Shown here: one piece after another, positions 10,980 to 47,925 of the stretch | Layout: each line of letters begins with the position of its first letter | Numbering within the stretch: position 1 is the stretch's first letter | Assembly: GCA_001724265.1 (NCBI GenBank) | Contig: MEDY01000194.1 | Location: forward strand, 1-54,013 | DNA from: Rhizaria sp. SCN 62-66 | Taxonomy: Eukaryota | Length of the DNA stretch: 54,013 nucleotides | Direction: 5' to 3' | Notes under the pieces: generated by a model | Told to the model about the DNA's origin: nothing | Database searches by the model: none | Seen by the model: the letters and a program-made list of their open reading frames with translations, nothing else | Position numbers and translations under genes: made by a program

Positions 10980-13900
10980 TCAGTCACTGCGCTGCGCTTT
11001 CTCCCTGTCACCGCAGCATCTGCTACCAAGTCTGCGCAGTGCTTGCACTGTGGCCCAGCCCCACAGCCACAGCGTTAGCCCCGGCCCCGCCGCGTCCGCG
11101 CGCGCACACTGGCCCCCGCCCCCGCATTGCGGTCCGCAGTGCAGCGGGCCCCGCTTCACCGGCCCACTGTCCGATCCGAGAGCACTGATCCCAGAAGGCT
11201 GGTGCTGCTGGCTAGCAGCGCGAAATGTTTTGCTCCCCGTTGCTTTGCTCGCAACTGGCGTGGAGGCAGCCGATTGTGGTGTGGAAGCGTGTGCACTAGC
11301 AGAATATGTAGAGCCCGACATTGCCGCAACAGCGTTGTTGTCAGCATCACCAGCCATAACAGCGGCAGCAGAACGCAACGCCGGCGTAAGAGACCCAACA
11401 CAATCGTGAACATTAGCGCAGTCTTCACCGCGGCCGCCAAGCGCCACAGCTGCAACGGCAAGCTCTAGCGCGGGCTGTGCAACCACCCAGTCCATGAGCC
11501 CGCCCACCAGTGCGAACACAAGCGGCGCGTGCTCTGCGAAGGCGACACCAACGCGGGAGCCGCCGTTGTTTTCCCGGAACAGCCGGGGGATCTCACGGGT
11601 CGCGGCGATGGCGACGACGCACGCGACGTCGAGGCCACACCACGGCAGCACGTGCGACCGCAGCCGCGCGCACCGGCCCGCAAAGGCGATCAGTGCGCCG
11701 CCGCCGCCAGCACCCGTGACACCTCTGAGCGCGAGAGCGAGGGAAACGACGGTGGCGATCGCAAAAGCCTGTGCGAGCAGCGGCGCGGCGGCGAGCATGG
11801 TGCCAGTCAGACCCATGAGTGCGCGGGAGGCTGCGGCACCTGTGACGGAACCCGCGGGACCTGTGAGTATTGCAGTCAATGACAGTGAGCGCTCGTACCG
11901 CGGCTAGCCCATCAACAGCCCTGTGTGCGTGAATAACGGCAGCGCCAGCGCCAGCACGGGCGCAAGAGTGCATACCACGCTCACTGCAGCGGCAACAGCG
12001 AGCGCCAGTCCAGCCGGCGGCAACGGTGGCGGCGGTGACGGCGAGAACACGCGAGTTGACAGGGTTTGCAGCTGTTTTATAGTTGCAGCAGACTAGGTGG
12101 TTGTGCAGTCACGCCACGGATGCGAATGCAGAGGAATTGCGCTGGCTACGGCCTCATTCACTCGAGCTTGCGTTGCTGTGACCGTTGTGCGGACAGGCGT
12201 GGGGAGCGGTGGCGGCGGGCGCGGAGGGCTGATGCGCGCGCGGATATCGTTGTCGCCGCAGCAGTCAGCGTAACCACTACTGCTCCCGCTATCATTATTT
12301 CCACCGCCGCTGTAGCCGGGAACCGCGACTGCAGTTATGGCGGCCACAATGGGCATCAGTGAGGCACCGGGGCCAGCTGAGGCCGGCGATGTGTCAGTCG
12401 GACTTGATACAGCAAGTGAGTGTGACTGTCTCTGCTGCGGAGACGGTGACTGCGACTGTGAGCTCGAGTGTGTGAGGCCTCCAGATGCATCAGTCTCTGT
12501 TGGGTTGGTTTGGACGCGAGTCGCGCCGTTGCAATGCATCGGGGACGCACCAACCAAGATCGGCGTTTTGTGGTGGCTGCTTGATCCGCTCGCTTTCTTC
12601 ACGTTGGTGAGCAAACTGACAGGAGTGCGGACAAGCGGCGCCGTTGATGTTGCTGTGCCATCCGCAGTCTTCTGCTCACCACCACAGCCGATGTCACAGC
12701 GCATAGAATCTGCCGTCAAGGCAGTCTTCTGCTCGTCATCGTCACAGCGCTTCTGCTCACTGTCATCGTCAGCGGCATAAAGGCTGTTGCGCTTGTCGTT
12801 TGCCGTTTCTGCGCCATGGTTATTGTTGTCATCTATCGGCGAGTCTGGAGGTGTCACCAAGTGAGTCAGTAGTTGCGGCGACGGGAGCAACGGCAGGGTT
12901 CTACCAGGACGCCTTGATATCGGTGTTACACTGCTGTCTGTCGCGCCGATGTTTGCTCCGCCCATCACAACATTGGTACTAGTTGCAACAACAGCGCGTG
13001 ACAGAGCAACGCCGTCTTCTTCCTCCTCTTCCAGCTCGTCTTGGTGACTGCAACCAGCCTGTGCGGCCACTGTTCCCAGTGACTCAAACGCATAAGCACG
13101 TTCAGTCGCGGGCACCGTCGGTGGCGGTAAGGCAGGCAGGACCACCGCGGCTGCGTTGCTCGCTACATCAGCATCAGCGACTGCGCTGGAAGAAGACGAT
13201 GATGAATCTGCATTGTCGTCTGCAAAGTGCACCTGCGGCAGTCCTGTGCGCGACACCGACGCCGGTGGAGAGTGCGGGCCGTGCACTGCAGCGTTATCTA
13301 CTGCCGCGGCGGCAATGCCGCGGTGACCGTGCGCATTGCTGTGAGTTTGACCGTGGCTGTGACAGTGGTTGTAGCCGGCGCGCGCTCGGTCCCAAAGAGC
13401 CAACGCGCACGGTGTTGGCCCTTTGCCAGCCGCAGCGTTTGCCTCCTCCGCAGCAAGCCTTGCCCTGCGTGCAAGGAGTCCCACGTGGGCGAGGGAGAGC
13501 GCTTGACTGTAGAAGACCGAGAATAAGAAGACAAACACGCCGCGGTCAGTCCAACCCTCTGCGACAACGCCCATGAGACCGTTTTGCATGCTGAACTGCA
13601 TTACAGCCAGCGCAAGCACGCAAACCCAGACGTCAAAGAAGGCCCACTTGCCCCATAGCAACAGCGCACGTGGCGCCCAGGCTGGAAGCCGGCGTCGTAT
13701 AGCTTTGGGGCCAAGTGTGATCGCGAGTGCGAACAGCTTCGCGTGGGGCATTGCGCCGGCGAAGATCGCAAGCAGAGCTGCCAACGCGCGTAGGTCGCTG
13801 CGCCAGAGCTCGCGCGCCGTACTCCAGACCGTACAGTCAAGCCGCGTTTGGAACTTGCGTGGGTTGTCGCGCGGGCCCCAGTTCACGGCGACGGAGAACG

Positions 13901-14126
13901 CTGTCGTGAGTTGGGCCGCGATGGTGAACACGATTCCCAGCAGCGCGGCTGCCAGCAGCGCCGTGTCAACCGAGACCAGTGAACGCAGCCGCAAAGTCGG
14001 GGACAGCAATGAGCGCCAACGGGTAGTGGTAGCGCTAGGCGTAGTCGGCTTGGCCCTTGGTGTTGGCAGCTGTGTCTATCCCCGCGAGGTCTCGGGTGGC
14101 AGAGCTCGTCGTGAAGGAGAGAGCAT
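10980..14126 (-). CDS. Two-domain PqiA-like multi-pass membrane protein, 1048 aa if three internal TAG codons are sense
   Basis: One frame from ATG 14126 to TGA 10980, interrupted only by TAG at 14076-78, 12093-95 and 11904-06. Domain 1: TVWSTARELW..LLAIFAGAMPHAKL..WGKWAFFDVW. Domain 2: RSLSLTAIL..LPWCGLDVACVVAI. Confidence 0.75.
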
Positions 14127-14657
14127 CTGCTGTTCAAGTCAAATCAGTCGCAAAGAAAGGGTGCTTCAAAATAAATAGGAATCTACAGTAATTTCTAGGT
14201 TTGTTCATACAATTTAATGGACTTGATTTTTCTATTAACGATGACACAATGGCAATCAAAGTCAGTATCTCACGGTCCACGATACAACAAATCCTTTCGC
14301 TGAGGTTTGTTGTTGAGTGGGTGTGTTGCAACCAGTGGATATGTGCCGATAAAATTCAACCATATATAAACATGAACTTGAAGATGCATGCATTCTTGCC
14401 AAATATTATGTCCAACACTATTTCACACTCTCAAGTTCCTCCATCGAAATTTCAAGTTGTGTTCCTAATTTCAACATTAACGCAACAGTGATAATAAAAT
14501 AAGCTATTTTATTTGCGCACCATTTCTGCCCGCAAGATATAAAGATATCAATAATATGTAACATGGCGTGGTTCTTCTCTGTCTTGTTTATCATAATTTA
14601 AAGTTTAGAAAAGCGACGGCATCAGAAGCGCTTGTAAAACTGTTGAATGCAATGAAA

Positions 14658-17600
14658 TTAGTCGAACTTATCGAACGACTGCATGCGCTTCGCGCCCTGC
14701 TGCCGCTTCACACCCGGCCGCGCCAGCGCCACCGCGGGCATCGCACCCTGCTCTCCCTTGGCATCCTGAGTTGCAGTCTCTGTAATTGCGGGGCCGGGCT
14801 GAGCTCCAGCGCCGCCAGCGGCTGCGGCGGCTGCGAGTGCTGCAGCATTGCTGCTGTTGGTGTAGCCCGGGGCGGCGGTGGGCACGTTGCCCGGCAGCGA
14901 CTGACGCACCATGCCCGCGTTGGTGCGCGGTTTGACCGACAGCGCGGCGTTAAGATTCGCCGCAAACGCCTCCGAGTGGCGCGCACCGCGCGGGCGCAGG
15001 CCGGAGCCGCTGGTCCCAGACCCAGAAGACGCAGACAGGTCCGCAGTGCCGTTCCCGGCGTGACTCGCAGTCGCGGTCGCCAGAGGATTCGCTGCGGCGG
15101 CCGACAGGGCGGCGAAAGCGGCGGCGCGCTCGCGGATGCTTGAGCCAGCGGTTCTCGCGCCCACAGCGGCGCCAGTACTCGCGGCGGTACTCGCGCTACC
15201 TGCAGCACCGTTGGACGGCGAGATCACATTCGCCCCGTTGGTGTTCGCGTTGCTGTTGTCGTTGCCGTAGTTGTTCGCCTTGTTTGCGGCGACGGCAGCC
15301 GTCACGGCCGCGGCCGCAGCGGGCGTGAGCGTGGCCGCGGGAGTGCGAAGTGGCGGCGCCGGAGCGAGGCCAAACGCAACCGCGTCTGCAGTCAGCGAGT
15401 CGGTGTTGCCCGCGCCGGGCTCGGGCTAAGCCTGCTCGGGGGCTGTGGGCGCGGCGTCGGCGTTGTCGATGCTGCTGTAGCGAGACACCGGAGCATGCGG
15501 GGCCTCGTGGTCAAGACTGGGCTCCTCGACATCCGCACCGGCGGCAGCCGCGCTATCAGCAGCAGCGCTATCAGCAGCCGCACTATCAGAACCGGCAGCA
15601 GCGTCAACAGCGTCATTGTCGTCATTAGCACGTGATTTAATTTCAACCGGCGTTTGCGCGTCGCCAGGAGAGGGATTACGCCGCACAATCTCACTAATCT
15701 GCGCATCAGCAGGCTCAGTATCGGCTGAACCGGCGGTGGAGTCTGCGGTTGTGGCTGCTGGGTTCTGAGCGGGGACGGAGACAGGGGCAGCAGCGCTGTG
15801 ACTGGAGGGGATCATGCGGTCTAGGGCCGCGGTCGTCCACCGACCCATCGTCCCAGTCAGTCCGCCCTCGGTCGCAGCCGCACTGGCGCCAGCCGTAGCA
15901 CTCGAGCTCGCGGCAGTGGCGGCGCTCGCCGCAGACACGGAACACGCAGCATCTTCATCCTCAGACTGTGCCTGTGTCTGCTGCTGTTGTTGCGCCTTCG
16001 CGGCCGCTTGAGCCACTGCCACCGCCCGCGCCTGGGCCTGAGCGCGCGCGACAGCCTCCGCTGCAGCTTGCTTCGCTGCTGCGGCGGCGACAAGCGCGGC
16101 GGCGGTGGTCGGCGCCGGCGCCACCGCAGTCTTCTGAACAGGCGCAGCAACCGCGGCAGGAGCATTGGCGGGAGTGTTTGTGTTAGCATCGGCGTTTGCG
16201 CTGGCATTCTCCAGGGCTTTCTGCGCCGCGGCCAGCCAGGGGTACATGCCGCGGATATACATGAGCACGCGCGGCAGCGTCGCCTCGGCCGCAGCACGTG
16301 CCCAAGTGTTCCCGTACAGGTGCGCGGGCACGGTCACGTGTAGCTCCGCCCCCGCGGCGGCCTCCCCGCCCGGCAGCTCCAGCGCCTCGGCCAGGGCGGC
16401 ACTCACCGTCGCGTGGTAGCAGCTGACTGCGCGCGCCAGGGCCAAGCGCACCGCGGCCTCGCGGGCGGCACCGGGGCCCGCGGCAATGCCAAGGGCTTCG
16501 GCGGCGGCCGCGGCGGCGGCGACGGCGGCGGCGGACACGGCCGGCCCAGCCTGTGCACTCGCGCTCGCGTTGGTCGGGCTCGGGCTCTTGCTGCTGCTGC
16601 TGCGGGGGAGATTGGCGTTCGCAGGATCGCTGGGGAGCGCGCGGAGACACTCTTGCGCGAGCGCGGCGGGATCTGCCGCCAGGACGCGGCGCCAACGCAG
16701 GACCGACGACGCCGGCAGTGCGTCGAGCGCCTCCGCCACCGCGGGAGACAGCGCGGGCGGCGGCGACGGTGACGGGGCAAACACACGGGCGCCTGCTGCT
16801 CCAGTCGCAGTTGTGGCAAAGGCGGATACGGCCTCCGCCGCCTCCGCTTTGAGCGCGGGGGTCGCGGCGGCCGCGGCGGCGGCGCTGAGAGCCTCGAACG
16901 CGTCGGCGAACGCGTCGGCGGCGGCGCGGCGCGCGGCGGCGTCCACCGCCTCGACAGCGCTCGCGTCGCCCGCGCTAAGCGAGATCTGCCCCACGGCAGC
17001 GTCGAGCGGGCTCACCTGCAACGCCAGCGCGGCGGAGAGAGAGGAGCAGAGCAGGATGGGCAGCTGACCCGCGGCGCGGGCGCGGTTGCAGGCGACCGTC
17101 AGGATGCTGAGCCCGCCGGCGTCGAGGGCCTGGCAGGGCGCATCGGCGTCGATGACGGCGATCAGCGGGCCGAACATGCGCCGGAGCAGTGCGGCGAGCT
17201 CGCGGACGCCGGTGGCAGTGGAGCCGCACAGAACGAAGGGGCGCGCGTGCAAAGCGTCTGTCAGCAGCAGCGCGGGCGCGGGGCACTGCGCGGTAGCGGC
17301 GGTGGCGGCGGCGTCGGTGTTAGCGGGGGCAATGGCATGGTAGCGGCGCCAGGCGTTGCGCGTGGCGCGCAGGAGCAGGGACGCGGCGAACACGGCGACC
17401 ATCGCGGCGGTGGCGCGGGTCGCGGCGGGGTTCTCCTGCGCAGTGTGGCGGGCGAAGTCCAGCGCGCGGCGCGGCAGCGCGGCGACAAACTCTGCCGCAG
17501 AGCTGCCACTGGAGCCGTTGGAGCACGGATCGGTGGTGGTGGAGGCAGAGGCGTTGCGGAGAGAGTCGAGGGTGGACGCGGCGAAGCGGGAGACCGTAGT

Positions 17601-17729
17601 GTAAATGCTCACCAGCGTCGCAAGGGTGCCTTTGGCGGCGGCGGTGCCGGTGCCAACCGGCGCGGGGGACAAGGACGCGTGCTCGGAGAGCGCGGCGGAA
17701 AGGCCGGCGTGCTCGCTGTGGCTGCTCAT
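14658..17729 (-). CDS. Ala-rich protein with a TM segment and a degenerate P-loop (IPT/MiaA-like) region, 1023 aa with one internal TAG
   Basis: ORFs 15426..17729 and 14658..15305 share a frame. The only stop between them is TAG 15426-28 (PEQA*PEPG). Motifs RPFVLCGSTATGVRELA..IAVIDAD and ARAAGQLPILL. Stop TAA. Confidence 0.72.
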
Positions 17730-18313
17730 GATGAGAGGGGAACGACTGGTGTCGCTGCTGTGATGAGTGCGAGTGTGTTGTGTGCGCGAGAGTCAAGCTA
17801 TAGGTATGCGAACGACGAATGCAGGGAATATATGCCAAATATTTCGTAATAATGAGTTTAATTATACGTATTCCCAAGCGCTTTCACTGTGATAAACGTG
17901 CTAAACAACGAAATTATGGGGGATTACAAGCATAATTAGATGTAGTAGTCGGGTAGCGTGCGTCCAACATGGAAGTTCGATCGGTGAAATGAAAAGACAC
18001 CATAACACACGTGGATACTGGGATTAACAGATATAATTTAAAATATACAGAGTTTCACGTGGTTAATATATCAAATTTCAAACATATCAATGAAAAGATG
18101 CCTGAACACTCCGAAAATATATATCGAAAGTTCACGCCCGTTGGGGTCAGTCCTCCAGCCTTCCAACCAGTGGCTCAGCAGAATTATCTTCAAGTAAGTA
18201 TAGCAGTCGCATATAGTGAGTTATCAGAATAAATTCGTATTTAATGTATAATAAATGTAGTTTAGTTATTAAATATCGTTAGTTTGATCTATATATCGTT
18301 TGTTTAACTGCGA

Positions 18314-20767: not shown

Positions 20768-20977
20768 GGTAACCGAGGTGAAGAGCTAACGTACAGCTAG
20801 TCCTCTGGGTCCAAGCAAGTCTGCGGATGCAAACAAAGATGACAAATTGAGCACAGATGATTGAAATCACAAGTCAAAAAACCAAGTTAAATTCTATAAA
20901 GCGAGTCATTATATCATATGACGGTACAGGCGGCGATCTAGAGCAAGCTGAAGTTGCTGCACTTGACTCGGCCGGGT

Positions 20978-20999
20978 GACCGTGAGCAAGCCCACGGTC
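20978..20999. promoter_or_regulatory. Inverted pair of GACCGTGRGC motifs in a divergent promoter
   Basis: GACCGTGAGC-AA-GCCCACGGTC. Same core as the 8186-8240 arms and 40808-40817. Confidence 0.5.
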
Positions 21000-21156
21000 G
21001 GCTGGACGACGTGGGAACGGGATGCTTTTTTTGTCTGCTTCGGGAAACCACTGAGCTGACGAGCTCGGTGCGATGAATCATCGACTCCAGTGCGCGCCTG
21101 TGTCAGTATATTCGCATAGCTTTACTGGATTATTTAAGAAGTGCACGTTGTGAATC

Positions 21157-24100
21157 ATGGGTAATACCCTTTGTCGCAGCCTACGCGCGGGGAGGACCAC
21201 AACCCCCGATGATTTTGATTCTGAGGTACGACGACAAGAAAGGAGACATCTCTTTTGCATTTGATGCCCCATGCCGTCATCTGCCACTGAATCCGATCGT
21301 GATTAGTTTTCTCATTTATTTATTTGACTTTTCTTCCTGTTACATTGCTTTTTTGCTTGTTTACACTTTATATAGGAGTTCAATGTGAGCAAATATGCCA
21401 CCACTCCAAAGAAGAGTAAGAACAACAAGTCGGGCCCGCGTCCCCCGCACGTCCCGACGTTCAAGCCCAAGTCACCCGCGCCCCTCGTCACGGGCACAGT
21501 GCTCCAGGCGCCCGATCTCAGCGACAGCGAGCTCAACGACCTGCCCGAATGCGTCTCGTCCTCCTCCAAGCCGGGTTCCCGTACCGCCACCAACAAAGGC
21601 GCGCAGAAGCCCGTCCCCTCAACGACCTCAACGTCCGCTGTCAAACCCGTCATGCGCATCACGCCGCCCGCGCCAGCGCCCGCGGGCTTCGTGGAGAATA
21701 CCGACTCGCCCTCTCCTGTGACCGCGCCCCCGGCACCCGCGGTGTCGCTCGCAGACTCAGTCATTCTCCCCGCCCCGCCGGCGACGCCCGCGTTCGCTCC
21801 GATCGTGGCGACGGCGGCGCACTCGCCCCGCGTCGGCCCCGGCGCCGCTGGCCCCGCCGACAGCTCCATCGCCACCGCGACCACGCTCGCCGCCGCGACG
21901 TCTGTTTCCTGGGCCGATCTGACCGACTTCTGGTCCGACAACGACAACGACGACAACGATAACGAAAATGACCACGAGGTTGATGCTGCTGCCGTGGCTG
22001 GTGCGACTGGCCACCAGCGCCGCCGCGGCCCGCGCGTGCAGCAGCAGGGCCACAGCGACAGTGACAGCAGCCGCCGCAGCGCCGCCAGAGCCACCGCCAG
22101 CGCCGCTGTCACGGCCGTCTCCGGGCTCACCACCGCGAAGCACAATGCCGCTGACCGCAGCAGCAGTGACCGCAACAATGACCGTGAGCAGCAGCAACAG
22201 CATGGTCAGCAACAGCGGCAGGGTCACGCTGACGACGACGACGAGTGTTCCGGCGGTTCTGACGAGTTCGTGACCGTCACCACAGGCCGCAACAACAGAG
22301 GCCGCCGCGCGCGCCCCACCTCCGCTGCCGCCGCCCCCGCTGCCGCTTCCGCGTTCACCTCTGCCGCCAGCGCCGCTGCGCCTGCTTCCTCGAGTGGCGC
22401 GACTGGCGCTGTCACGCCCTCGCGCGCCGCGCAGCGCAACAGCAGCAGCAATGGCTCCGCCGCCGCGGCTGGCGCCTCCGCTGCTGCTGCTGCTGATGCT
22501 GCTGCGAATGCTGGGGCGAGTGCGAATGGTGGCGCGGCTGTGCTTGTGTCCCCGCGCCCGCGCCGCCGCGCTGCGTCCTCTGCCGCCCCGTCGCCGTCAA
22601 CAGCCGCCGCTGCCCACGCCGCAGCCGCTGCACCCTCTGCCGCCGCTGCCGCTGCCGCTGCTGCCACAGACTCCGCCGCTGCAAGTGCTGCGAGCGGCGG
22701 AGAAGCAGCGGGCGCTGTGCTGCGCCCCGAGAAGGCCCGCCGCAGCCGCAGCAGCGCCCCTACCTCGACCGGCGCCGCCGCTGCGGGCGCGAGCGCGAAC
22801 GCTGGTGTCGGTGGCGCGAGCGCGCATGCGCCGCACGTGAGCGCGAACGCACCTGGGACGCCGGGGAGCTATGACGCGCGCCGCCGCGGCCGCACCGAAT
22901 CTGGCGCCGGCGCAGGATCCACATCCGCAGCTGTTACATCACCTACCGTGGCCGCCGGGGGCAGCGCTGCACCGCGGCGCACGGTCACTCTCCCAGCGCC
23001 CGCCCCCGCCGCCACCGGCTCCGCGGCCACTGCCGCTGCGCACAGTAGCTCGAGCTCTGCTGTTGCTGCGCATGCTGAGCCTGTCCGTCCTAGCGCGCCC
23101 GCGCCCCTTAGCGCCAGCCTCAGTGCCAACGGCTCAGCAAACAACAACGCGGCTTCCGCCGCTGCGGGGACGGCGCCGTCGCCGTCGGTCCAGTCGCTGG
23201 GGCTATCGTTCGCGGCTGCGATTCGCCTGCACAACCCCGACGCGAAGCCCGCCGACGGCAAAACCGCTGACTCCAAGGCTGCCGACGCTAAGGACGGCAA
23301 GGATGACGGCACCGCGCACCACGTCAACAACCACAACAACCAGCAGCAGCAACAGCAGCAGCAGGGTGGAGGTCGCAGCGGCCGCCGTGGCGCCTCCGGC
23401 CTCCCAACCGCCGCCGCCGCTAACGGCGCCAGTGTACCCAGCGGCAGTCGCAGCACCCCTGCCTCGCCAGACAAGCGCGCGCGCGCCCCGCGGCCCGCCA
23501 CCGCCGGCGCCGGCCCCTCGAACGCGCACGCGCACTCGCACTCCGGTGCGGGCGCTGCAGTGAGCCCCGCCGCCGCGCTGGCCGCCGCGATGTCCCCCGC
23601 CGAGGTTGCCGCGGCTGCGGGCACTGTTGTGATTGTCAGCGGACCACGCGGCAGCTACACGACGTACCGCATTCCCTCGTCGTCGTCGTCGTCGTCGTCC
23701 TCCGCCACAGCTGGCGCCGCGCCGGGCTCCGGCCGCCGCGCAGCCTCAGCCACCGCCGCTCCGACTAACGGCACCGGTAGTGCGGGCGCGAACGCTGCTG
23801 TGCCAGCGGTGTCGATATCGTCCCCCGCGCACGGCGCGCGCGCAGCCGCACAGGCCCAAGCCCAAGCCCAGGGCCAGGGCCAGCAACAGCAGCAGCATGG
23901 CCAGCACGGCGGTCGCGGTGGCCGCCGCGGCCCCGGAGTTACCCCCACGCCCGTGTCTTCCCCGGCCACAGTCGGCACGGGCGCCCCGCGCCGTCTGCTG
24001 CCGGGCGCTCTCGCGGCGCAGGGCCCCTCGGCGTCGTGGGCTGGCACTGGCAGCGGCACCGGCGCCGCTCTGCCCGCGCCCTCGCTCGCCAACATCTCCA

Positions 24101-26029: not shown

Positions 26030-28105
26030 TTGATCTTAGACCTGAATCGCAGCAATCCGCGTCCTCCAACCAAGTTCATCGTCAACGAGAGCAGAAATGC
26101 GTCTTCTCGGGACGTTTATGAAGGTGGTTTGCGAGACAGCTCGAGCGATGAGCATACCCGCAATGAAAGCGACATTATTTACTGGCCGTTATTCACCACC
26201 AGCGGCATGTTGCGGAACTGCATTAATCTTGCAAACTACAATGCGGAGCTTGGCGCAACGCTGGCGAGGTACAGCGATATTGTGGATCTGGACACTGGCC
26301 GTCGTTGTTTTGGTGCAATACGCAGGGTGTTGCTAGCGGCACTTGTGCAATCACGTGCTACGGCTGACAAGGGGGCTCGCAGCTACAGTCAGCGCAGTGC
26401 CGATGCGTTGCAAAAGATTTGGCAATGCAAGCTCAGGACTCGTGCGGGCAAAAGTGTGAGACGGTTTAGCGCGTTTCGGGATGCACTTTGTCAGAGAGTT
26501 GCCCATCGTGCACTGCTTATGCTTGATAGATGTGTTATTGAGCAGATAACCCTGCTTATTCCCGCCGAAGAGATCCGCGCAGTGATGAAATCCGCTCCTG
26601 AAGTGCTTGGGGCATAGATCACACACCAGCATCCAACGGAAGTCGATCAAGCAGGCATATGTGAGGCACTTGCGCTGCTGTCCAAGCAGGTAACCAATCA
26701 CTTTGTTGCTGACGCGCTTTACATCACGCATGGCTCAAAATCATTGCTCAACCTTACGGGGCTATCTTTTCTACACACACTTGTGCGTGGTAGTCACTCG
26801 GAGCTACTCTGCAACGTGATGGCACTGATTACGCCCAGCATTTCTCGTATCTGTGTTCGTGATCTGTACTTTACACTTCTTGCATCAGTGTCAAATCACC
26901 TTGAGGAGTGTGATAAATCATCGAGCTGTTCGATCGCTGAGCTTTTGATTGGCCTTGGAGACTATTGCCTTAGTGGGGAGTGCTGTCTGCACTACGTAAG
27001 CGAACACGCAAAACCCTCGTTATTGCTTGGTATGATTGGTACGCCAAGGATTCCTCCGGCTGCATGGCCTTTGGCAACGCGATACGTCTTTGGTGCACTT
27101 ATGTTGTCAGTGTTTGCAGGGATAAGCTTCTTTTCAACACAGCAAAGCGCTCATCTTAGGCAGACACTGCTGTTGAAGCTTTTAAAGTGCGGTGTTGATA
27201 GTGGATTTGTTCGGAGTGAAATGCTCAACGACCAAAGCGATGAAAGTTGGAGTTTTGATATAGATAAGTGGGGTATCGTTGCAAAGTATAGGTGTGTGGA
27301 AGACGCGTGGATTACGACAAATAAAAATATGGATTGTTGTGATATACGTTCTTGCACAAAGGCAAGCTATGACCTTCGAGCCGTTGGAAATAGTTACAGT
27401 ATCGACGAAGACGAAAGCGAAGAAAGTGAGGGGGAAGATGAAGATAGTGGTCGCGAAAGTGCCGATGGGTCTGACAACACCTCAAACAACATCAACATCC
27501 TCAGATTTGGCAACCATGACACAGACTGTGATGATGAATATGAAGATGATGAAGATGAGGATGATGAAGATGAGGATCATGAAGATGAGGATGATGAAGG
27601 TACTGATATCGACGATTACGACCCTCATGATGTGAAGGACATTCTTTATCGAAACGACTTTGTTGATGAGACGGATTGTGACGGCAACCATGAATGTGAT
27701 GCTTGTCTATTTCTTGGAGACATTCCATATGATGTTGGACGCTTTGATAGAAGGTACAAGTTTGTGGCTCCCGGAATCATGCGCACCCAGTGCGTCATAA
27801 CCAACTCATCTCTAAACCCCGATATCGGCGGAAACACTGCGAGTAACCAGACGAGCCAAATCCCCAACTGCGAGCTCCGCGAACAACGCCGCAATGCTCA
27901 AAACCCGACAACAGCCGTCAGCTCGAGTGTGCTGACTGCGACTCCGGCAATGAGCGCCGCAAGTGTGCGTGAACAGAATGCGGATGAACTGCGCAAAGTT
28001 TTAGTGAGCGCGTTGCGATGGCCGTGTGTGGTCAATTTGGGACGCAGCGCAGCTGGACTCAGGTCTGGACTCGCAAAGATTCGTAAGGCTTTGTGCACAC
28101 CTTAA
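26030..28105 (+). CDS. Low-GC hypothetical protein with a long Asp/Glu tract; about 690 codons with one internal TAG; 5' end uncertain
   Basis: ORFs 26030..26617 and 26744..28105 are in one frame, separated only by TAG 26615-17 (VLGA*ITHQ). A possible upstream exon is 25702-25924, joined by intron 25925-26039. Stop TAA. Confidence 0.55.
27530..27600 (+). repeat. Degenerate coding tandem repeat (GAT/GAA/GAG) encoding a D/E tract
   Basis: GATGATGAAGATGAG-like units repeated, encoding DDEYEDDEDEDDEDEDHEDEDDE. Confidence 0.7.
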
Positions 28106-28284
28106 AAGGCAGTTACCTCGTTGGATACAAGCTTATGCATCCGCGTATCAGGGCATTTAGTCAGATTTTAACGAGAGGAATAAGTAGAGAGATATAGAGC
28201 TCTTTATTTAACTCAAAATCTCATTTTTAAATAAAATTTCTAAGTAGAAACGAAAATCTAGGTACCATCGATGTCTTTCATCCG

Positions 28285-31200: not shown

Positions 31201-34200
31201 GTTGGCCGCAGCGAGGTGACACGGGGCCCACGCGGCGTCTAGCGCAAGCGCAGCTACAAGAGCTGGACACTCAGCCGCGATGAGAGGGGACACTGTCACC
31301 GTGCGGCCGCAGATGCCACAGCACTGCGCTGGTGCAATCAGCGCAGCAACTTCGGCCTCAGCAGCAGCTTCCGCCTCTGCGTTGGGGAACAGCGCCGCAC
31401 GCCACACGCCCCCATCAAAGTCGGCGCCGCTACCGCAACCGTCGCCAGTCGTGTCGTGGCCGTCGTTGTGGCCGTGGTCTTCGCAGTGCCCGCGCGCGAC
31501 CGACCGCAGCGGCGCCAGAATGCGCGCCAGCAGCGGGGCCACAGCGGCCCACGCACCGCGCTCACTCTGCGGCGCCGGCGCAATCGGTGACAATGCCACG
31601 CCGCAAACGGCAGCCGAAGCCGTCGCAGCAGGCGCACCGAGAGCGCGTGTGGCAGTGCGAGGCGCAAGCGCAAGTGCAGCAAACGCGGGCGCGCTGATGG
31701 GGACGCCTGCGGCCTCAGCGGCAGCGAACGCGGCGGCCAGCGCGGCAGCTGCCTCGCCGGCAGCGTGCGCCGTGCGCGCAGCGGCCAGTGGAAGCTGCAG
31801 CGCGCCAGCGGCGTTGGCGGGCGCTGTGAGCGATAAAAGCGCAACGCCGTCACCTGCTGCCGCGGCTGCGGGCGCGCTTGCCGCTGGCGCTGCGAACGCC
31901 GCCGCCAATGGCCGCAGCAGCGTGGTTAGCGTGGCAAGCCCGGCCGCGAATAGGGAGAGCGCGTTCGCGGTCGACTCTGGCTCCTCCGGGCTGTAACGCG
32001 GAGGGGCGAGGGCGTTTGTGAGCAGCAGCGGTGAGTCCGCGGCGGACACCGCGCGCAGCGCCAGTGTGGCGGCGACGGGATGCAGCGGCGGCGTTGACGT
32101 CAGTGCCGCTGACACCGTGCGTGCCGCTGCAACGATCGGCGCGGCGACCGCGGGCGCGACGTCTGGCCCCGTTGCCGCGGCGAGAAGCGCAGTCAACGCG
32201 GAGCGGCCAGCCGAGACCGCGGCCGCGGCCGCGGCCGCGCGGCGCGCAAAGCCCCGCGCGAGCCGCATCAGCGCGGGGCACGGCCACGCGTGGACGATAG
32301 CGTCTTGCGGCCGCGCGCCGCCATGTGTCGCGGTGACCGCGTAGTGCTCTGCACACGCACACGGCACGGAGTCCGCGTTTTGCGTGAGATCGACTGCGGG
32401 GGCCGCGGCGAGCCACGCTGTGTTGGCCGACGCAACTGCTAAGTGTGCGGCCACGGCGGCGGCCCACGCGCGCGAAAGGAGGAATGCGCTCAGCAGCGGC
32501 AGCGTGCGGCTGCGGTTGCCGCGGGCGCTGTCGTCGGGCGTGATGGGGTCGTGGGACATGTGCCAGTAGACCTGGGCCGCGTGGTCGTCTCTTCCACACG
32601 CCATGGCCTCAGCCACCATAGGGCTTACATCTTCGTGGGCTTCGTGTTGATTGTTATAAAGCTGAGACAGAGGCCAGTCGCGTGGCAGTATCGGCATGCA
32701 GAATGGTGTCTCCGTCCACTCAACAGGCCCGGCCATGCCTACCTTCGATCCGGTGGTCGAAACAGCTGTGGTGTTAGAAGGCGCGAAATACGGGACGCCG
32801 CGTGCCGAGAGCTCAGTCATAAAAGCTTGGACTGCGGCCATCAGCAGCGCAAGACGTGAGAGCAGCTCAGGGGTCAAGCTCGGCACAGTCGACGGGGCCG
32901 TGGCCGCGGGTGCGAAGGCCGCCAGTGACACGGACATCGTTGCAATGGTCACAGTAGATGTGGATGCGAAGTTAGGAAAGAGACAGGGCCCTGTGGCAGA
33001 GGCAGCGAGCAAGACTTCGAGCAGCTGCTGCAGCAGAGATGTCGGCAGCGAAGGCACCAGCGGCGGCAACATCGTCAGCACTGACACGGCAGCTGCGTGC
33101 ACGTCCACCGCTGACGCAGTCACACTCACGCTCTCACTCACACGCGCAGGCGCAGCCGCAGTTAGCGCAGCAGCAGCGGCCGTGGAGGCGGCATCCGCCG
33201 TCGCTGTCATAGCCGCGAGTGAAAGAAGTGGTAGTGTCGCGGGTAGCCGTTGATACGCGGGCGTGACTGCAGCAGGCAAGTCAGCGTCCGCGATGAAACG
33301 CAGCAGCCACGCTGCAAGCCCGCTGCCGCCACCAGTGGCGCCACCAGTGGCTCCGCCGCTTCCCTGCTGCGTTCGTTCTGCTGCACTCGGAGACACAGCG
33401 CGCGCAACAAAAAGCGCCTGCGCAAGTGCGGCTGCGGCGACCCGCGGGCGCACTATGGGGGCCGTAGCTGTGTAGTCTGCGTTTGCGCGCAGTGCGGCGG
33501 CCGCCTCTGCCGCGGCCGCCGCCGTGGCCGCCGCCGCCGCGGTGCGCCACTTGTGCAGCCGCAGCAGCGCGGTAGTCTGCAGGCGCGGCTCGGCCGCAGC
33601 GGCCAGGGCAACTGCGAGCGCAAGAGAGCGCGCAACGGCGCCCGCGGCGTCTTCAGCTAACGCGGCCATACGCGCACTCGCAACCTCGCCAGCGGCAATC
33701 GTGTGTTGTTGCTGCTGTTGTTGCTGAAACTGCGGTGACGACTGCGTGGTTCCGGTGACGTCGATGTCGGCGGCTGCGTAAGCTAAGAGAGCTTCGTCCG
33801 CCGCCGCGCCCACCGCCAGCACATCGTCTGTACTGCTGCTGCTGCTGCCGCCACTATTGCCGCTGCCGGCACTGGCGCTCTCCGCGCGGCCGCGGCGGCC
33901 GGCGCGCGCCGCCACGATGGCGAGCACTGGCAGCAGCGCGGCTGCGCAGCGCGCGCGGTGCGTCGCCTGCAGCGCAACGAAGCAGCGCGCGCGCGACGCA
34001 GCGGCGGCCGCGGCGGGGCTCGTCGCGGGGGCCGCAGTGGCCGCAGCGGACGCGATCTGAGCGGCCGCAGCGCCTGTGGACGTTGCCGCCGCGGTTGCAA
34101 ATGCTGTGTGCACCGCGACGGCGGCAGACAGTGCCATGTCGCCTGCACCGCTGCCAGTAAGCGCGACCGCGGTTTCGGCGGCAGTCGCGGCGGCAGCAGC

Positions 34201-36807
34201 GGCCGCAGCAGCCGTCGACGCCTGGTGGTCCGCAACCGCACCTTCGTCCAGAAGCGCCGAGAACGCCGTGGGCGTGTCCGCGGCGACTGCCTGCAGCGCG
34301 ACCGGGCGGCGCCACTGCCACTGCTCGCGCACGCTCTGTGCAAGCGCGTGCGCGGGGTCCTGCGCCGCCAGCGCGTCTAGCAGCCCCGCAGCGTGCGCCG
34401 ATGCGCTGCTGTCAGCGCCTCCGCGCGCAACGGCGGCGGCAGCGCTCGCAGAGCCAGCGACTGTGCAGTGGTCGAGCGGTGAGAAGGCGGCGAAGATGCC
34501 CGCGTCCCCACCGGCAGCCTCGTCGGCGCTGCCCGCACCGCCCATACCGCCGCCACTGCCCGCGCCCGCGTCCGCGTCCGCGGCGGCTGCGGCAACGGCG
34601 GCGACGGCGGCGGGCGCGGGCGGGCGCGCCAGGGCCAGCAGCCGCTGCAGCAGCGCGCGGCGTGTTGCGGGGCCCTGGGACCACAGCAGCGGCAGCAGAC
34701 GCGCTGCCCAGTGCAGTGTCGCCGGCGCGCTCGCCAGCAGCAGTGTGTGCGCCTGCAACACGCCCGCGCGCGGCCGCTCACAGTCACCCCCTGCACTTTG
34801 CGACTGTTGCTGCTGCTGTTGCTGTGTGCTGCAGTGGGTGGCGGTGAGCGGCGCGGGGGGCGCGGGCGCCACTGAGGCATGCAGAGGCGCCGGCGCTGGC
34901 ACGGCGCGCGGCTGCAACCACGGCGGGTACAGCCTGCCCGCCGCGCCCTCCAGCGGCCCCGGTACGACGGGCTCTTCCAGTGTGCTAATGGCGTCGACGC
35001 TGCCCGCGGTCGCTGTATTGCACAGAGAAGGCTCCGGCGCGGGCCCCGGCATTGCGGCCATGAGCAACGCCGCGGGGTCTGAGGCGCATACACCGGGAGG
35101 CGGCGGCAACAACCACGTGCCGCGCTGCTGCATCAACGCAGTTGCTGCGCCGGTCATCGCGCTTGTCGCCATGTTCGCCGCCGTGGCAGCCCAAGACAGT
35201 GCGTCGGCGGTCGCGGCGGCGGCGGCGAGTCGAGCGACGAGCTCCAACGCGCCGGTCTGCAGCAGTGGCGTCACAACGCTCACCCCGCCACGCGCAGCCG
35301 CAGCCGCAGACGCTGACGCGGATGCCTTGCTGCCACGGCGTTTTGCACCGTTAGCGCCAGTGGGGAGGATCGACGTGCCGCGCAGCGCAGCTTGGATGCA
35401 CGAGAGGCCAAGCCGTCCACTGAGCAGCGCACGCATGCAGACACGGGTCGCAGCGGCAGCGTGCGCGGGCGCGGCCAGCAGCGCGAGGAGCAGACTGGCG
35501 TCGCTGACTGGGAGCAGCGCGGCGGCGTGCGCGCGCGAGGTCGCCGCGGCCTCAGCCTCGGCCTCAGCCTCAGCTTCCTCGTTGTCGTCGGTGGTGGAAA
35601 AAAATGCGCGGTGTCGGTGCTGCGTGCTGTGGTTGTAAAGGTCATCGCCGTCTGAGTCGTCCTCGTCATCGCTGTCACTGTCGCCCATGCCGCCGCTAAG
35701 TTTGCTGGAGCGGTGTCGAGCGATCGCAGCCGGCGCGGGCGCGGGCACGAACGGCGACGAGTGCCACGCCGCAACATTCGCTGTATTGGCACTGCCGCTG
35801 CTGCGTGCTATGCCGGCGCCGTCGCCAGCGAGTGCGGCGTCGATTGACGTGAGCACGATGACCGCAGTGTATGGATGGCGCGCGACGTGGTCTGCGACGA
35901 CTGCGATCACCAGTGGCAACGCGGAGGGCTGCAGTGAGCGCAAGCGGGCGCGCAAAAGGTAAGCCGCCTCCAAGTCGCTCGCGGCCGGCGCAGAAATACC
36001 CTTGGGCGCGAGCGCCACGTGCTTCTGTGTCTGCGAATTGCTGCCAAGTTGTTGCTGCTGCTGTTGCTGTTGAGTTGGGGGGTGTGAGAGCGCGCAGCGG
36101 AGCAGAGCACGCGTTAGTGGCGCGATATCGTCATCAGGGGCGCGCGGCAGCGAGCGCAGCGCCAGTGCGCGCACGGCGGCGCGCGCGGCGGGAGTGGGCA
36201 AGTCAGCGAGCGCGGCGAGAGCGGGGACGAGCAGCGACGCGTCGAGCGCAAGGGCGGATTCGACTGCGGTGACGGTGAGCGCGGCGGCCGCAGGGGACGC
36301 GGAAGACGAAAGCGGAGGAAGCGCTTCGAGGACCAGCTGCGGGGTGGACACGCGCGGCAGCAGGGAAAGAACTGCGGTGGTGAGTGGCAGTGACGGCGCC
36401 GACCAGAGGGCAAGCGCGCGTAAACCCGACTTAATCTGCGCGCGCCAAGCGAGAGAACAAAAATGTCGATATCTTTGTGAGATAAAAGAAAAAACAAATA
36501 TACATCGCGGTAACAAAATAAAAAATATATTTAAACGTTATCATAACGTGCAGAGTTCTTAAACAGATAATTAGCTGGCGCTGGGTAAACGTACAGCTTT
36601 CGGTGTGTCCTCTTGGGCGATGCTTTCACAGAGGAGCTTCGCGGCAGGCGTTTGCGTGGCGTCAGCTGTAAGATATGGTGGAATCGCGCGGAGCAGGGCA
36701 TCAAATGACTCGGATGCCACCTTCTCCAGCCGTGATATATCAGAATCAGTGAAGGGTTGCGCAAGGGCCTCTTCGCCAGCGCGCAAAGGGCGCGAGTTGA
36801 GGTTCAT
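28285..36807 (-). CDS. Very large Ala-rich protein with an N-terminal FANCD2-like helical region, 2787 aa; exons 36807-36595 and 36435-28285
   Basis: Exon 1 (MNLNSRP..TPKA) splices to IKSGLR. LVLEALPPL..LALDASLLVPALAALADL..VRALALRSLPRAPDDDIAPLTRALL resembles, from memory, the FANCD2 segment SLTVPILDVLSSL..VRQLVMDKL..EDLPVIIKFIL. The ORF is solid and the family call is moderate. Stop TAA. Confidence 0.6.
36436..36594 (-). other. Spliceosomal intron, 159 nt, phase 0
   Basis: AAAGCT|GTACGT ... gcgcgcAG|ATT, very AT-rich interior. Confidence 0.87.
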
Positions 36808-37218: not shown

Positions 37219-37261
<43 letters not shown>

Positions 37262-37280
37262 GCAACACCAACAACAACAA
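37219..37280. repeat. (AAC)n microsatellite, 14 perfect units plus a degenerate tail
   Basis: AAC x14 at 37219-37260, then AGC AAC ACC AAC AAC AAC. Intergenic, downstream of the CBS gene. Confidence 0.95.
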
Positions 37281-43461: not shown

Positions 43462-44147
43462 AGTGCAGCAGCGAAAGACTACCGTTTCATTCACCAGTAA
43501 GGACTGACAGAACTTGAGAATGACTATTATGTGCGAGCAGGACTCGTCAATAACGCTAGATTGTGGCCAGTATGTTGATTAAATAGTTGTGATGTGAAAT
43601 ACACTAAATTCTAGTGCTTTCTGAGACATATAAATGACTGCTTCGTTTCAGAAGGTGAAATTTAGGACGACCAGTTCTTGTTACACGTATGCATCTTCAG
43701 GGATACATCGTTGTTAACAACAAAATTATCATATTATGCAATGAAACCTAGTTTATTCATCCGCGAAATACGCCATACTTTGTTTTCACTGCCGCAACCC
43801 GACGTTACAAACTTGAAAACTGTGTATTTTGACTTTACGCTGGATTGGTTGCCGACTGGAAAAAATCTCAACTGGGGACTGCTGATGCACGTGCAAGCAG
43901 CCTCGACTTTGATAAAGCAAGCATTCGTTTCTGATCGTCTAAGTGCGATCGCTGCTGTATATAAAAACCTGTTCATAATATTATTTTGTTTCTTCAAATT
44001 GTAAAGCTTCTGCACTTTTTTATTCTCCCATCTGATGAAGCAATTCGCGCCCTCACCAACTGTCAACCACATCCGCCCTTGCCTCGTCCAATCTACAGCC
44101 ACAAGTCACTCTATTGGACACATCAAGCCACACGCGTCACTGATCCC

Positions 44148-47100
44148 ATGAGCTGCACAGCAATGCGTCTAAAAAGACTGGCGCTGCTTGCGTGCGTGGC
44201 GCTCGCGCTGCTCCTGTGCACCGTCTCTGTCTCTGCCTCGCTCGCCTCAGCATCTGCCTTGTCAGCCTCTACCGCCGCCGCCGCTGCTCCTGCCGCCGCC
44301 TCGCTTTCCTCCCAGCCCGCCCCCCAGCTCGACGAAGACGAGGACATGGACAACTTTGGCACATTGCTGGCCGCAGACGGCGATGACGACGATGACGGCA
44401 TCGACTTTGACTTCGATGATGCCGACGCCGACGCAGCCGACCGTGCCGACACGATCGCTGACGCTGACGCAACTGGTGATGAGCACGTGACGGATGCCAA
44501 GACTGTTTCGACGGCCAGCGCGCACTCTAATGCTGAACCGCGCACGAGCACTCGCCCTGCCCCCGCTGCCGCTGCTTCTGGTGCTGGCGCTGGCGCTGGC
44601 TCTGGTGCTGGCTCTGGCGCTGCTCGTGGCAAGAGCACTGGTGATAGTAAGACTAAGAACAATGCCGCCAGCGCTGATGCTGACGTCGACGACGCGGACG
44701 TGCTGGATGCATTGATCCTAGACGCGATCGACGAGCGTAACGCCGAAGTCGCCGCTGCTGCCGCCAAGGAGACAGAGAAGACCGACAAGGGTGATAAGAC
44801 TGCTGCTAAAACGGACAGTGACTCCGCAAGCCAGAACCAGCCCAGTAAGACGAGTGGGAGTAGCGCCGCTGCGACGGCAGCGAAGCCCGACTCTGCTGCT
44901 AGCAAGAACAAGAACAAGAACAATGGCAAAGCCTCTTCTGGTGGCCGCACAATGGAAGACATGAGCGAGGACGAGCTTGTCGCCATGCTAGCCGACACCG
45001 AGGCCGCAATGGCGAGACTCACCTCCGCCGGCGCGGTCTCCAAGTCCCAAAAGAGCGCCGCGGACGTGAACAAGGGTGACGGCGCTGTTAAGGGCAAGGG
45101 TGGTGCAAAGGGCAAGTTTAGTATCGGTATGGACGAAGAGGAAGAGCAGGCGATGGCTGCGTTGATCGAAGCCAACGGCGGCGACTTCAATCTCGACGGC
45201 GACGGCGACGGCGACAGTAGCAACGCTGACGGCGACACTGCCGCTGAAGCTGCGCTCGCCGCTGCATTGGCCGCCGAAGACGACGATGACTCCGATCACG
45301 ACGACGGCGACGATCTGCATATGGACGGTGGTGTGGCGGGATTTGACCCTGCTCTGTCGCTGTCAGTCTCTGTAGACGACCGTTCCCTGACCGCGGGCGC
45401 CGGAGCAGTCCTTGCACTGCTCTCCGCCAACGCCAGCTCGAGCGCGAGCGCCAGTGTCGGTGCCGGCGCTAGTTCTCCAAGTGGCGGCAGTGATAAGCGG
45501 TGGAGTGATGCGTTCGCGGCGACTGCACTGTCTGCGGCGCGAGTCCTGGCCGCCGTGGGGGCGGACCTGCCTCCTGCTGCCACCCTTGCTGTCGTCGCGG
45601 CGCCCTCCGCCTCGGCGAGCGCTGACGGTCACAGCACCGCGAGGGCTGCGAATGAGAAGGATGACAATGAGAATGGCAAGTCTGGGATGGACGCAGCGTC
45701 CGCGGTCGCCGCCGGCGCTCTCTTAGCCCACACAGTCTCTCATAGCAATGCTGAGGCTGGCAGTAAAAGTGGCACTGCTGACTCAGCAAATGCGGCAAAT
45801 GGCGGTGGTGCGAACATTGCGCGCGTGATTGTGGTCGCCTCTGGCGACGTCGGTTTTGCCCGCGCATGTGCTTCTTACGCCGCTCTCGCGGGCGCAGTGC
45901 GGACCGAGGCTAAGCTTTGGCCCCAACGCAACGGCAAAGGCAACGCGAAGAGCAAGGGTGATGACAGCCACAAGAAAAGCGCTGGGAACGCACTGGTCAA
46001 CGTGACTCCCGCGCACTCGTTCTTAGCGGGCTCACTGCGGCGCCGCTTCGCGCTTGCGCTCGCCGCGACCGCGCCCGACGCGCCATTGGCCTCTGCCGCT
46101 ACCGCCGCCGCGCTCACTGGCGGCGGCGTCGAGGCGGCCAAGCTGGCGGAGACCGTGGCGCTTACCCCGCTGACTCTCGAGGCGCACCTCATCACCGCCA
46201 CGAACGCTCTCAGCAGCGGCGGCGGCGGTGGCGGCAACGCTAACGACGGCGCCGCCGGGAAAGACGGCAGCGCTGCTGCGGGCGGTGGCGCCGTGTTCTT
46301 GGGTGACGCCGACGCCGTGTGGCTCGCGCAACCAACCGCGACCGGCTTCGGCTTCAACGCCAACACCGGCGGCGGCACCAACGCTGCTGCGTCTGCGACA
46401 GAGGCTGATGTGGCGGCGACGGCAGGGCTGCTGCGCGCGTTTGCGCCGGACACGCTCGTGCTCTCGACTGCGCAGCTGCCAGCCGCTCTGCTCATCACCA
46501 CACACAAAGACAGCAGCAAGGACAAGGACGACAAGAGCAAGAGCGGCGACAAGCCCGCTGCTGGTGCGCACGGTGTTGTTGTGGAGGAGCATCTCATCAC
46601 TCAGCGCATTACTAACGCCCTCGCTGCGAACCCCAAGGAGGCGAACGGTGCTCGTGTGTGGGTTTACCGCGTCTCACCCCTCGCCCTCGCCAACGCGCAC
46701 ACCAACGGTAGCGTTTACAGCAACAGCATCGCTGAATCAGGCGCGTCCCCCAGTCTCGCCGTCGCTGCCAGCCGTGCTGCAGCGAGTATGAGCTCTAGCG
46801 CCGCCTCTGCTGCGGCGGCGGCGCGTGCTGTGTGTTCTCTAGAGGTCGCGCCGCCGCCGTTGCGCGGTGCCGCGGCCTGGGCCCCCGACGCGGTCACGGT
46901 GGTCTTCCCGCGTCCTGCGTTCGCCGTATTTGCGGACTCTGTCGCCGGCGCACCCCGCGGTTTAAGCGCCGGGGGCAAGGGCGCTGGCTCCGAACAGGGG
47001 TTCGAGTTCGGCGACGAGGATGAGGAGTTTGAGAGTAGGGGCCGAAACAGCATCGAGGAGAACGACGATAGCCTGATCCCGTTTGACGAAGCGATCAACA

Positions 47101-47925
47101 CTGAGGCGGACGCGGAATCCGACCCTGACGGTGACCTGGACGCCGCGGACCCGCACGAGGGCGACTTCATGCTCGAGGGCATGATGACCGACCGCGATGA
47201 AGACGGCGACGGATACGGAGACAAGACTGGGGTGCACTTGGAGTAGCTCAAGACCGGCGGCGTGGGCCACGACAATGTACGAATATGCACTATACCTCAG
47301 AAAATCAATGTTTATAACATGCTTATTTGCTTTCGTTTAATTGAAATTTTATTATGAAGTGTTCATATCACAAACGGAAACTCACATCACTTATCTCAAC
47401 TTTGGTTGTTCTTGCGTTCTTGATTGACAACAGGACTACCATTTCGACTCTCTGTACGCAGACGCGGTCGACTCGTCCCACTTTGACCCCGCCCACCACA
47501 GCCCTCGCGGCGGCTCCGCGCCCCCCGCCGACGCCACCGGCCGCGCCCTCATCAGCGTCGCCGCGGGCGTCTGGGGCTTTCTGCTGCTCGCCGCGGCCGC
47601 CGCGGTCGCGCACCAGCGCTTCGTGCGCGGCAAGAGCGCGAGCGTCATCGCCACCGATGCGGGCGCCGCCGCGCTGTGGGTGCTGCAGTGCGGCGGCGCG
47701 GGCGCGGCGGCCGTGGCAGGCGCGCGCAGGCGGTTCGGCCGCGGCGGCGTCTCGACCGAGTCCAACCGGCTCACGGCCGCGGCGGGCGCAGGCGGGGACG
47801 GCGACTCGGATGTCGAGATGGGGTCTGTGAGCCCCGTGGGCGCGAGTCTCAGTCTCAACGTCGGTGCTGGTGCGCTGTCGCCGAGCGCGACACTGGGCAA
47901 GAGTCTGGCAAGCAGCCACCGGTGA
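44148..47925 (+). CDS. Signal-peptide plus C-terminal TM protein with a degenerate DxD glycosyltransferase-like motif, about 1206 aa with one internal TAG; exons 44148-47276 and 47434-47925
   Basis: Signal peptide RLKRLALLACVALALLLCTVSVSA. Motif VFLGDADAVWLAQP. TAG 47244-46 lies 10 codons before the donor AAT|GTACGA. Exon 2 (DYHFDSLY..) encodes the TM helix ALISVAAGVWGFLLLAAAAAVA. Stop TGA. Confidence 0.72.
47277..47433 (+). other. Spliceosomal intron, 157 nt, phase 0
   Basis: AAT|GTACGA ... tgattgacaacAG|GAC. The GC-to-AT transition coincides with the donor. Confidence 0.78.

Follow-up and report, generated by a model that had tools for sequence, protein, structure and literature searches.

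Does UAG still signal the end of translation in the genome from which contig MEDY01000194.1 derives? The question arises from six TAG codons that sit inside four genes of this contig, the whole 54,013 bases of which were analysed and are referred to below as the window. The original prediction had placed all six in frame and had proposed that UAG is translated into an amino acid, with UAA and UGA still acting as stops. We show herein that all six do lie in the frame of long open reading frames (ORFs), which, with TAG read through, span 10980-14138 and 14658-17792 on the minus strand and 26030-28105 and 43965-47357 on the plus strand. Across 16 gene models (14,718 codons in total), 11 genes end at TAA, 5 at TGA and none at TAG, and within the same models there are six in-frame TAGs but no TAA and no TGA, with no frameshift needed anywhere. 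In this small sample, gene ends were checked against orthologues only loosely, for the alcohol dehydrogenase gene ADH3, and the end of one gene, g4, depends on a predicted intron. That neither TAA nor TGA interrupts the frames is in part a matter of construction, since the ORFs were delimited by these two triplets; an ORF scan found no pair of strongly coding, same-frame ORFs split by TAA or TGA. We favor, with modest confidence, the view that UAG is translated as an amino acid and that UAA and UGA are the sole terminators. A TAG within a conserved block, coding signal across TAGs, the lack of TAG at all 16 gene ends and the absence of other lesions speak for the predicted sense codon, although on thinner evidence than the prediction implied.

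The codons themselves are not products of faulty assembly. Contigs from a run of another study (X3) cover 11392-13008, 13219-14196 and 14804-16489 without a single difference from the window, and over 24914-28150 a contig from a third study (X4) departs from it only by a substitution at 27127 and an insertion at 25752, both away from the TAG. The TAGs at 11904, 12093, 14076, 15426 and 26615 (each named here by its lowest coordinate) are therefore unchanged in the contigs of two other studies, and samples of three studies, with dates from 2015 to 2025, agree on these five. Such constancy speaks against an alternative in which the code is standard and the TAGs are premature stops, either recent nonsense alleles or marks of pseudogenes, in orphan and low-complexity genes that evolve fast and can be dispensed with. 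In genes of that kind, TAA, TGA and frameshift lesions might be as frequent as TAG, but none was found in the ~3,900 codons of the four genes. Moreover, this alternative implies that four of the 16 genes are dead in a compact genome, and it is unlikely that as many as four would all be indel-free pseudogenes marked by nonsense codons only. No gene among the 16 is TAG-terminated, which counts against this alternative as well.

What follows a TAG in these genes also differs from what follows a true stop. The frame is open for 307, 62, 660, 255 and 495 codons after TAGs, whereas of 14 flanks beyond true stops, 12 have the frame shut after no more than 36 codons. In g2, g3 and exon 2 of g4, the downstream part has no usable ATG of its own, and this was counted in favor of UAG as a sense codon. 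The predicted continuity of coding composition across the TAGs held for 15426, 11904, 12093 and 26615, but not literally for 14076 and 47244. A tandem TAG-TAG at 8425-8430 (minus strand) was also considered and was dropped, as the frame there is non-coding.

The best-supported case is the TAG at 11904..11906 (minus strand), residue 741 of a PqiA-like membrane protein, the gene for which (10980-14126, minus strand; 1048 codons and a TGA stop) holds three of the six TAGs. The N-terminal domain of this protein matches Pfam PqiA (E 2.7e-6; 27.8 bits against a cut-off of 23.8) and has relatives with 55% (P0004) and 28% (P0005) identity. For the C-terminal domain, an exhaustive HMMER search found P0006, a relative of 317 residues with 36% identity over residues 709-983 (E 5.6e-14). 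Homology to P0006 extends to both sides of TAG 11904, where the window reads PLFTHTGLLMG*PRYERSLSL and P0006 reads PLFTHDGIVMMEVRYTRRFSL, an alignment without gaps that places a Glu opposite the TAG. The blocks PLFTH.G..M before the codon and RY.R..SL after it are conserved with identical spacing, while the column of the TAG itself is variable, with Glu in P0006 and, as judged by eye, Ile or Asp in P0009. Since the segment aligns residue for residue with P0006, it is exon, and TAG 11904 almost certainly lies within the mature coding sequence. A 38-base intron just 3' of the codon was rejected as a candidate, as it would leave the TAG in place and its sequence is conserved coding sequence. That a gene with three TAGs has kept a downstream domain conserved relative to P0006 also speaks against a decaying gene. 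Database calls of this protein are fragments that stop or restart at the TAGs (P0002, residues 81-677; P0003, residues 771-1048). A profile comparison of its N- and C-terminal domains gave a probability of only 1.8%, which does not prove an internal repeat, and the C-terminal alignment matched 48 pattern stretches in a metagenome collection that includes neither the contig of the window nor that of P0006, none of them a relative.

A second strong case comes from g2, an Ala-rich orphan gene of 1023 codons with a TAA stop (14658..17729, minus strand), in which the TAG at 15426..15428 (minus strand) is residue 768. Codon usage scored in the gene frame is 0.52 per codon over the 60 codons upstream of this TAG and 0.55 over the 60 downstream, with no other frame above 0.11. 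The 255 codons downstream have their first ATG near the end. This undiminished coding signal argues against a nonsense allele, and the codon is very probably part of the mature coding sequence. A database search with the g2 protein matched nothing but a 767-residue piece of g2 itself that stops at the TAG.

Could the TAGs be removed before translation, so that a standard code would suffice? Unrecognised introns with a length that is a multiple of three, or RNA editing, might do so, and the genome does have introns, which the original prediction had ignored: there are four well-supported models and two further candidates. Several ORFs in the window do not begin with a start codon, and four splice models predicted from the sequence would each give a complete stop-free coding sequence. 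Gene A (2376-6166, plus strand) is modelled with exons 2376-5113, 5263-5623 and 5804-6166, open for 1153 codons to a TAA at 6164-6166, and with introns at 5114-5262 (donor GTACGT) and 5624-5803 (donor GTACGG). In ADH3, an intron at 7736-8059 (minus strand; donor GTACGT) is predicted to join the exon 8096-8060 to 7735-6621, and the joined N-terminus (before ECKAAVAW) fits solved class III alcohol dehydrogenases. In the gene at 9800-10581, an intron at 10047-10147 (plus strand; donor GTGCGT) would join 9800-10046 to 10148-10581, with 226 open codons and a TGA stop. All four modelled introns have the donor consensus GTRCG and a YAG acceptor, are 101-324 bases long, and are AT-rich or pyrimidine-rich without coding signal (-0.2 to 0.2 per codon). 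That introns end in YAG was counted in favor of removal at the RNA level.

The pieces that would have to be removed nonetheless bear little resemblance to these introns. They are neither AT-rich nor pyrimidine-rich, and each would have to lack in-frame TAA and TGA and to have a length divisible by three. Candidate pieces that span a TAG retain the coding signal of the genes they lie in; one at 15426-15686 in g2 scores 0.43 per codon, far from the -0.2 to 0.2 of the accepted introns. As to editing, A-to-I conversion of UAG to UGG is known from the sexual stage of some filamentous fungi; here, however, it would need to hit 25% of the genes. The RNA contig nearest a TAG, from the poly(A) run X6, covers 11541-11921 and is colinear with the DNA, reaching 15 bases beyond TAG 11904. 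It carries two unplaced mismatches, and under a bridging rule of 31 bases past the TAG, the short X6 contigs bridge no TAG. Alternative sites could drop TAG 47244 (donor 47232) and TAG 14076 (acceptor ~14070). Removal at the RNA level is thus possible for these two sites and unlikely for 11904 and 15426, and as an explanation of the whole set we consider it unlikely.

The two other TAGs of the PqiA-like gene differ in this respect. TAG 12093..12095 (minus strand), residue 678, lies in a low-complexity linker, 63 codons upstream of TAG 11904 and in the same frame, between the N-terminal PqiA and the C-terminal domains. Both domains have relatives, so that a full product requires passing TAGs 12093 and 11904. 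The sole GTRCG donor able to remove TAG 12093 is at 12550 and would need an intron of 567 or 690 bases; this candidate is open in frame and carries the gene's own weak coding signal, and its 690-base form would delete the conserved block around TAG 11904 as well. Around this TAG the gene frame is the best, but weakly so, and we place the codon in the mature coding sequence with good confidence. TAG 14076..14078 (minus strand) is ambiguous. Ahead of the first transmembrane helix there is a single in-frame ATG (14126), 16 codons before the TAG. Translation must start upstream of the TAG, since the in-frame ATG that follows already falls within the Pfam PqiA domain. Of the two acceptors that could pair with the candidate donor described next, the better one, AACAG at ~14130 with a pyrimidine tract, leaves the TAG exonic, while a purine-rich ACACAG at ~14070 would make it intronic. 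On balance we lean towards an exonic position. The sequence ATG|GTGCGC occurs at 14515-14523 (minus strand), 390 bases upstream of the PqiA-like ORF, so that an ATG directly abuts a consensus donor, and this ATG may be a first coding exon that consists of the start codon alone.

A comparable decision between donors arises in g4, where the TAG at 47244..47246 (plus strand) lies 11 codons before the end of exon 1. This exon (44148..47276, plus strand) encodes a signal peptide followed by an acidic low-complexity region. After the TAG there are 10 GC-rich codons and then a GTACGA donor at 47277, exactly where AT-rich sequence begins. An intron is predicted there (47277..47433, plus strand; 157 bases, GC 0.32, GTACGA...ACAG). 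Coding would continue from 47434, in a different frame, with a putative exon 2 (47434..47925, plus strand) that encodes one transmembrane helix and a tail, ends at TGA, and lacks any ATG ahead of residue 130. Among 24 frame-compatible donor-acceptor pairs in g4, only one has a GTRCG donor, namely that at 47277, and it keeps the TAG exonic; in addition, the 45 bases at 47232-47276 reach 0.44 per codon when read in the gene frame. Were the rival donor GTGCAC at 47232 used instead, the TAG would fall in the intron. The codon is likely to belong to the mature coding sequence.

The end of g4 also bears on a third explanation, in which UAG carries two meanings: as a rule a terminator, it would allow efficient readthrough in certain contexts, either in a programmed or leaky manner or as an ambiguous codon like those of Condylostoma and Blastocrithidia. 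Without splicing, TAG 47244 would be the end of g4, and it lies where a shift in composition sets in. In-frame TAG is very rare, and three of the six TAGs have C as the next base. A C after a stop codon favors readthrough. However, the tail of g4 is better explained by the consensus donor and exon 2, and none of the 16 gene models needs TAG as a terminator. Furthermore, three readthroughs in one gene, as in the PqiA-like gene, would leave very little full-length product unless suppression were efficient, and efficient suppression at three TAGs amounts to reassignment. We regard a dual meaning as highly doubtful.

The remaining TAG, at 26615..26617 (plus strand), is in g3, an orphan gene at 26207..28105 (plus strand) with a TAA stop. 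One frame is open for 195 codons upstream and 495 downstream of it, 67 codons separate it from the next ATG downstream, and around the TAG the gene frame is the best of six, but weakly so. It is reasonably likely to lie within mature coding sequence. A search of 5.8 billion proteins with g3 returned only its own 428-residue fragment downstream of the TAG. The region 26000-28100 that contains g3 is a lower-GC island (0.485 against ~0.62 for the window) with a different codon usage, and g3 may be foreign or recently born.

Several findings weigh against UAG as a sense codon. Position-specific base composition predicts 111 in-frame TAGs, ~18 times the 6 that are observed, a density of ~0.4 per 1000 codons, and it is absent from the mitogen-activated protein kinase (MAPK), ADH3, Dph2, CBS and CCCH genes and from two giant ORFs. 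None of the six TAGs falls in a conserved gene; all are in genes of poor conservation, which would tolerate nonsense alleles best. With the codon usage of this DNA, 57-60% of random nonsense mutations would give TAG, so that six of six has a p of ~0.04 under the pseudogene explanation, which is not decisive. The lack of TAG among 16 stops has a p of 0.003-0.07 at the usual TAG share of 15-30%, and some protists with the standard code make little use of TAG, Euthynema at just 4% of gene ends (PMC9161772). Homology reaches across the site for one TAG of the six (11904), and g2 and g3 have no relatives. The alternative splice sites by which TAGs 14076 and 47244 could be removed, including the ACACAG acceptor and the GTGCAC donor described above, and the two mismatches in the X6 contig belong on the same side. 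Finally, neither tRNA genes (searched with ARAGORN) nor Rfam matches were found in the window. The scarcity of TAG, its confinement to poorly conserved genes, its large share of random nonsense hits and the lack of relatives for g2 and g3 are also what favors the pseudogene explanation; set against the lack of other lesions, the conserved downstream domain in the gene with three TAGs and the persistence of the alleles, that explanation appears quite improbable.

If UAG is indeed a sense codon, as we favor, it would be read by a tRNA whose anticodon is CUA, which would pair with UAG but not with UAA, as proposed for the known UAG-only codes, and the release factor eRF1 would no longer be efficient at recognising UAG. 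UAG would then be a rare sense codon, seen so far in fast-evolving, low-complexity or orphan genes. The original prediction preferred Gln as the inserted residue. This preference found no support over Leu or Glu, as only one homologue aligns across a TAG, with Glu there and in a column that varies. A guess by analogy, from the tally of known cases only, would put Gln first at somewhat less than an even chance, Glu or another residue clearly behind it, and Leu slightly lower still.

As to the source of the DNA, the window has a GC content of ~62%, and its long ORFs, on one strand or the other, alternate with short spacers rich in AT. Searches of Pfam and the PDB identified housekeeping genes of eukaryotic type: an ERK7/MAPK15-like kinase (215-1672, minus strand), the class III alcohol dehydrogenase ADH3 (6621-8096, minus strand), a CCCH zinc-finger protein, a CBS-domain protein and diphthamide synthase subunit 2 (Dph2), for which a protein atlas query agreed on the family. 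The other genes are Ala/Ser/Gln-rich orphans. Two giant ORFs, one of 2750 residues (28285-36537, minus strand) and one of at least 1912 residues (48274-54012, minus strand), have no Pfam domain; runs of poly-Q and poly-D occur in them, and none of the three stop triplets interrupts either frame. The 2750-residue protein as a query found nothing among genome contigs, with query patterns consisting of poly-Q and poly-D only. GCG/GCC-type simple repeats in Ala-rich genes (16858-17523 and 22186-22851) recruit contigs of many organisms, with a summed depth of 128-258 compared with ~5-10 elsewhere and dozens of false joints when mapped. The introns are few and lie near gene ends, 5' or 3', with four in three genes and the g4 candidate close to the 3' end of that gene; their donor consensus, G|GTRCG(T), is unusual, and they are either AT-rich (GC 0.26-0.35) or pyrimidine-rich (GC 0.55), a signature that could serve for binning or identifying the organism.

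Window DNA is present in bioreactor, wastewater and fuel-cell metagenomes of several studies dated 2015 to 2025, and the best explanation of its source is an uncultured, GC-rich, intron-poor eukaryote of wastewater reactors. A giant virus was rejected on account of the MAPK15-like, ADH3, Dph2 and CBS housekeeping genes and the spliceosomal introns, and a kinetoplastid on account of the mixed strands of the genes. The MAPK gave no match among viral contigs. In a quick MAPK tree, the window groups only with the environmental proteins P0031, P0048, P0029 and P0030 (Shimodaira-Hasegawa-like approximate likelihood ratio test, SH-aLRT, 99). Chlorarachniophytes top the named MAPK matches, at 65-67% identity, but are not sister to the window in that tree. 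Among genome contigs the MAPK found six loci, the best of which (L001) is 53% identical and therefore belongs to another eukaryote. This locus is a 3879-base contig with a eukaryotic ERK7-like MAPK, filed under a candidate-phylum bacterial metagenome-assembled genome, and is probably eukaryotic contamination. With P0048 as the query, metagenomes yielded 80 loci, none above 69% identity to the window MAPK.

The nearest relative in the MAPK tree, at 69% MAPK identity, is L007, a 21-kb piece of a 181-kb metagenome contig. It has long intron-free ORFs and the same architecture as the window, with a GC content of 0.53. Five large ORFs of L007 contain no internal TAG, and one gene (3744-7532, minus strand) probably ends at a TAG (3765-3767), with a TGA seven codons later. 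By its sequence, this organism probably uses the standard code. Since one of its genes is probably TAG-terminated, L007 lends no support to a shared code, and the trait, if real, is not obviously shared.

Reassignment of UAG apart from UAA has been reported in very few nuclear lineages, namely one fornicate, one rhizarian and some phyllopharyngean ciliates (PMC5304391, PMC11687900). In the fornicate Iotanema spirale, UAG is Gln and the stops are UAA and UGA; UAG occupies conserved Gln columns in hundreds of transcripts, and the GTS motif of eRF1 is changed (PMC5304391, PMC9161772). The window resembles Iotanema in having UAG alone in frame, UAA as the predominant terminator, UGA as a stop and no UAG terminator, but differs in offering a single homology-anchored TAG site. 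Diplomonad introns have a fused branch-point and acceptor motif, of which the window introns show no sign, and the MAPK tree places the window with no named group.

The second comparison is with Rhizarian sp. exLh (Sainouroidea), in which UAG is Leu, the terminators are 56 UAA and 15 UGA, 384 UAGs occur in 71 genes, and UAG is scarce in highly expressed genes (PMC5304391). UAG-only reassignment and a preponderance of UAA over UGA (56/15 there, 11/5 here) are common to both, whereas in-frame UAG, on those figures, is many times denser in exLh than the 6 in 16 genes of the window. Relatives of exLh dwell in dung and sewage, which would fit a wastewater source. In phyllopharyngean ciliates, UAG alone is reassigned, to Leu and twice to Gln, with UAA fixed as the preferred stop (PMC11687900); these cases were mined from metagenome-derived genomes, with UAG widespread and suppressor tRNA genes identified. 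The window, unlike these ciliates, combines 62% GC, long genes and GTRCG introns with no ciliate-like features and no tRNA gene. In Condylostoma, Parduczia and Blastocrithidia, the same codon is translated inside genes and also terminates at gene ends, and other stops are affected as well (PMC5304391, PMC4967479). In contrast to such ambiguous codes, the genes of the window can all do without TAG as a terminator, and neither TAA nor TGA occurs within a frame. What sets the window apart from the known UAG-only codes is how sparse UAG is, along with a genome rich in GC and poor in introns, its GTRCG donors and its position in the MAPK tree. An independent capture of UAG, still at an early stage and in an undescribed eukaryotic lineage that is neither ciliate, fornicate nor sainouroid, is a tentative possibility; in that event UAG would have gone as a terminator and come back at ~0.4 per 1000 codons in fast-evolving genes only. 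Narrow literature searches turned up no description of a code of this kind in any eukaryote from wastewater, which is not proof that none has been published.

The TAG observation is largely real, and although 54 kb cannot prove it, a sense codon is a plausible reading and the best of those available. Standard gene callers break these genes up at every TAG, and the database accordingly holds only fragments (P0001, P0002, P0003 and P0028), so that eukaryotic bins of this organism would be mis-annotated. If confirmed, the code would be a further case of a known, rare UAG-only class, and an independent one in a GC-rich non-ciliate, adding a data point on the co-evolution of eRF1 and tRNA(CUA). A low usage of UAG in fast-evolving genes would bear on the debate between codon capture and an ambiguous intermediate, and, should the early stage prove true, the organism would show, as it exists in nature, the intermediate with low codon usage that models of codon capture assume.

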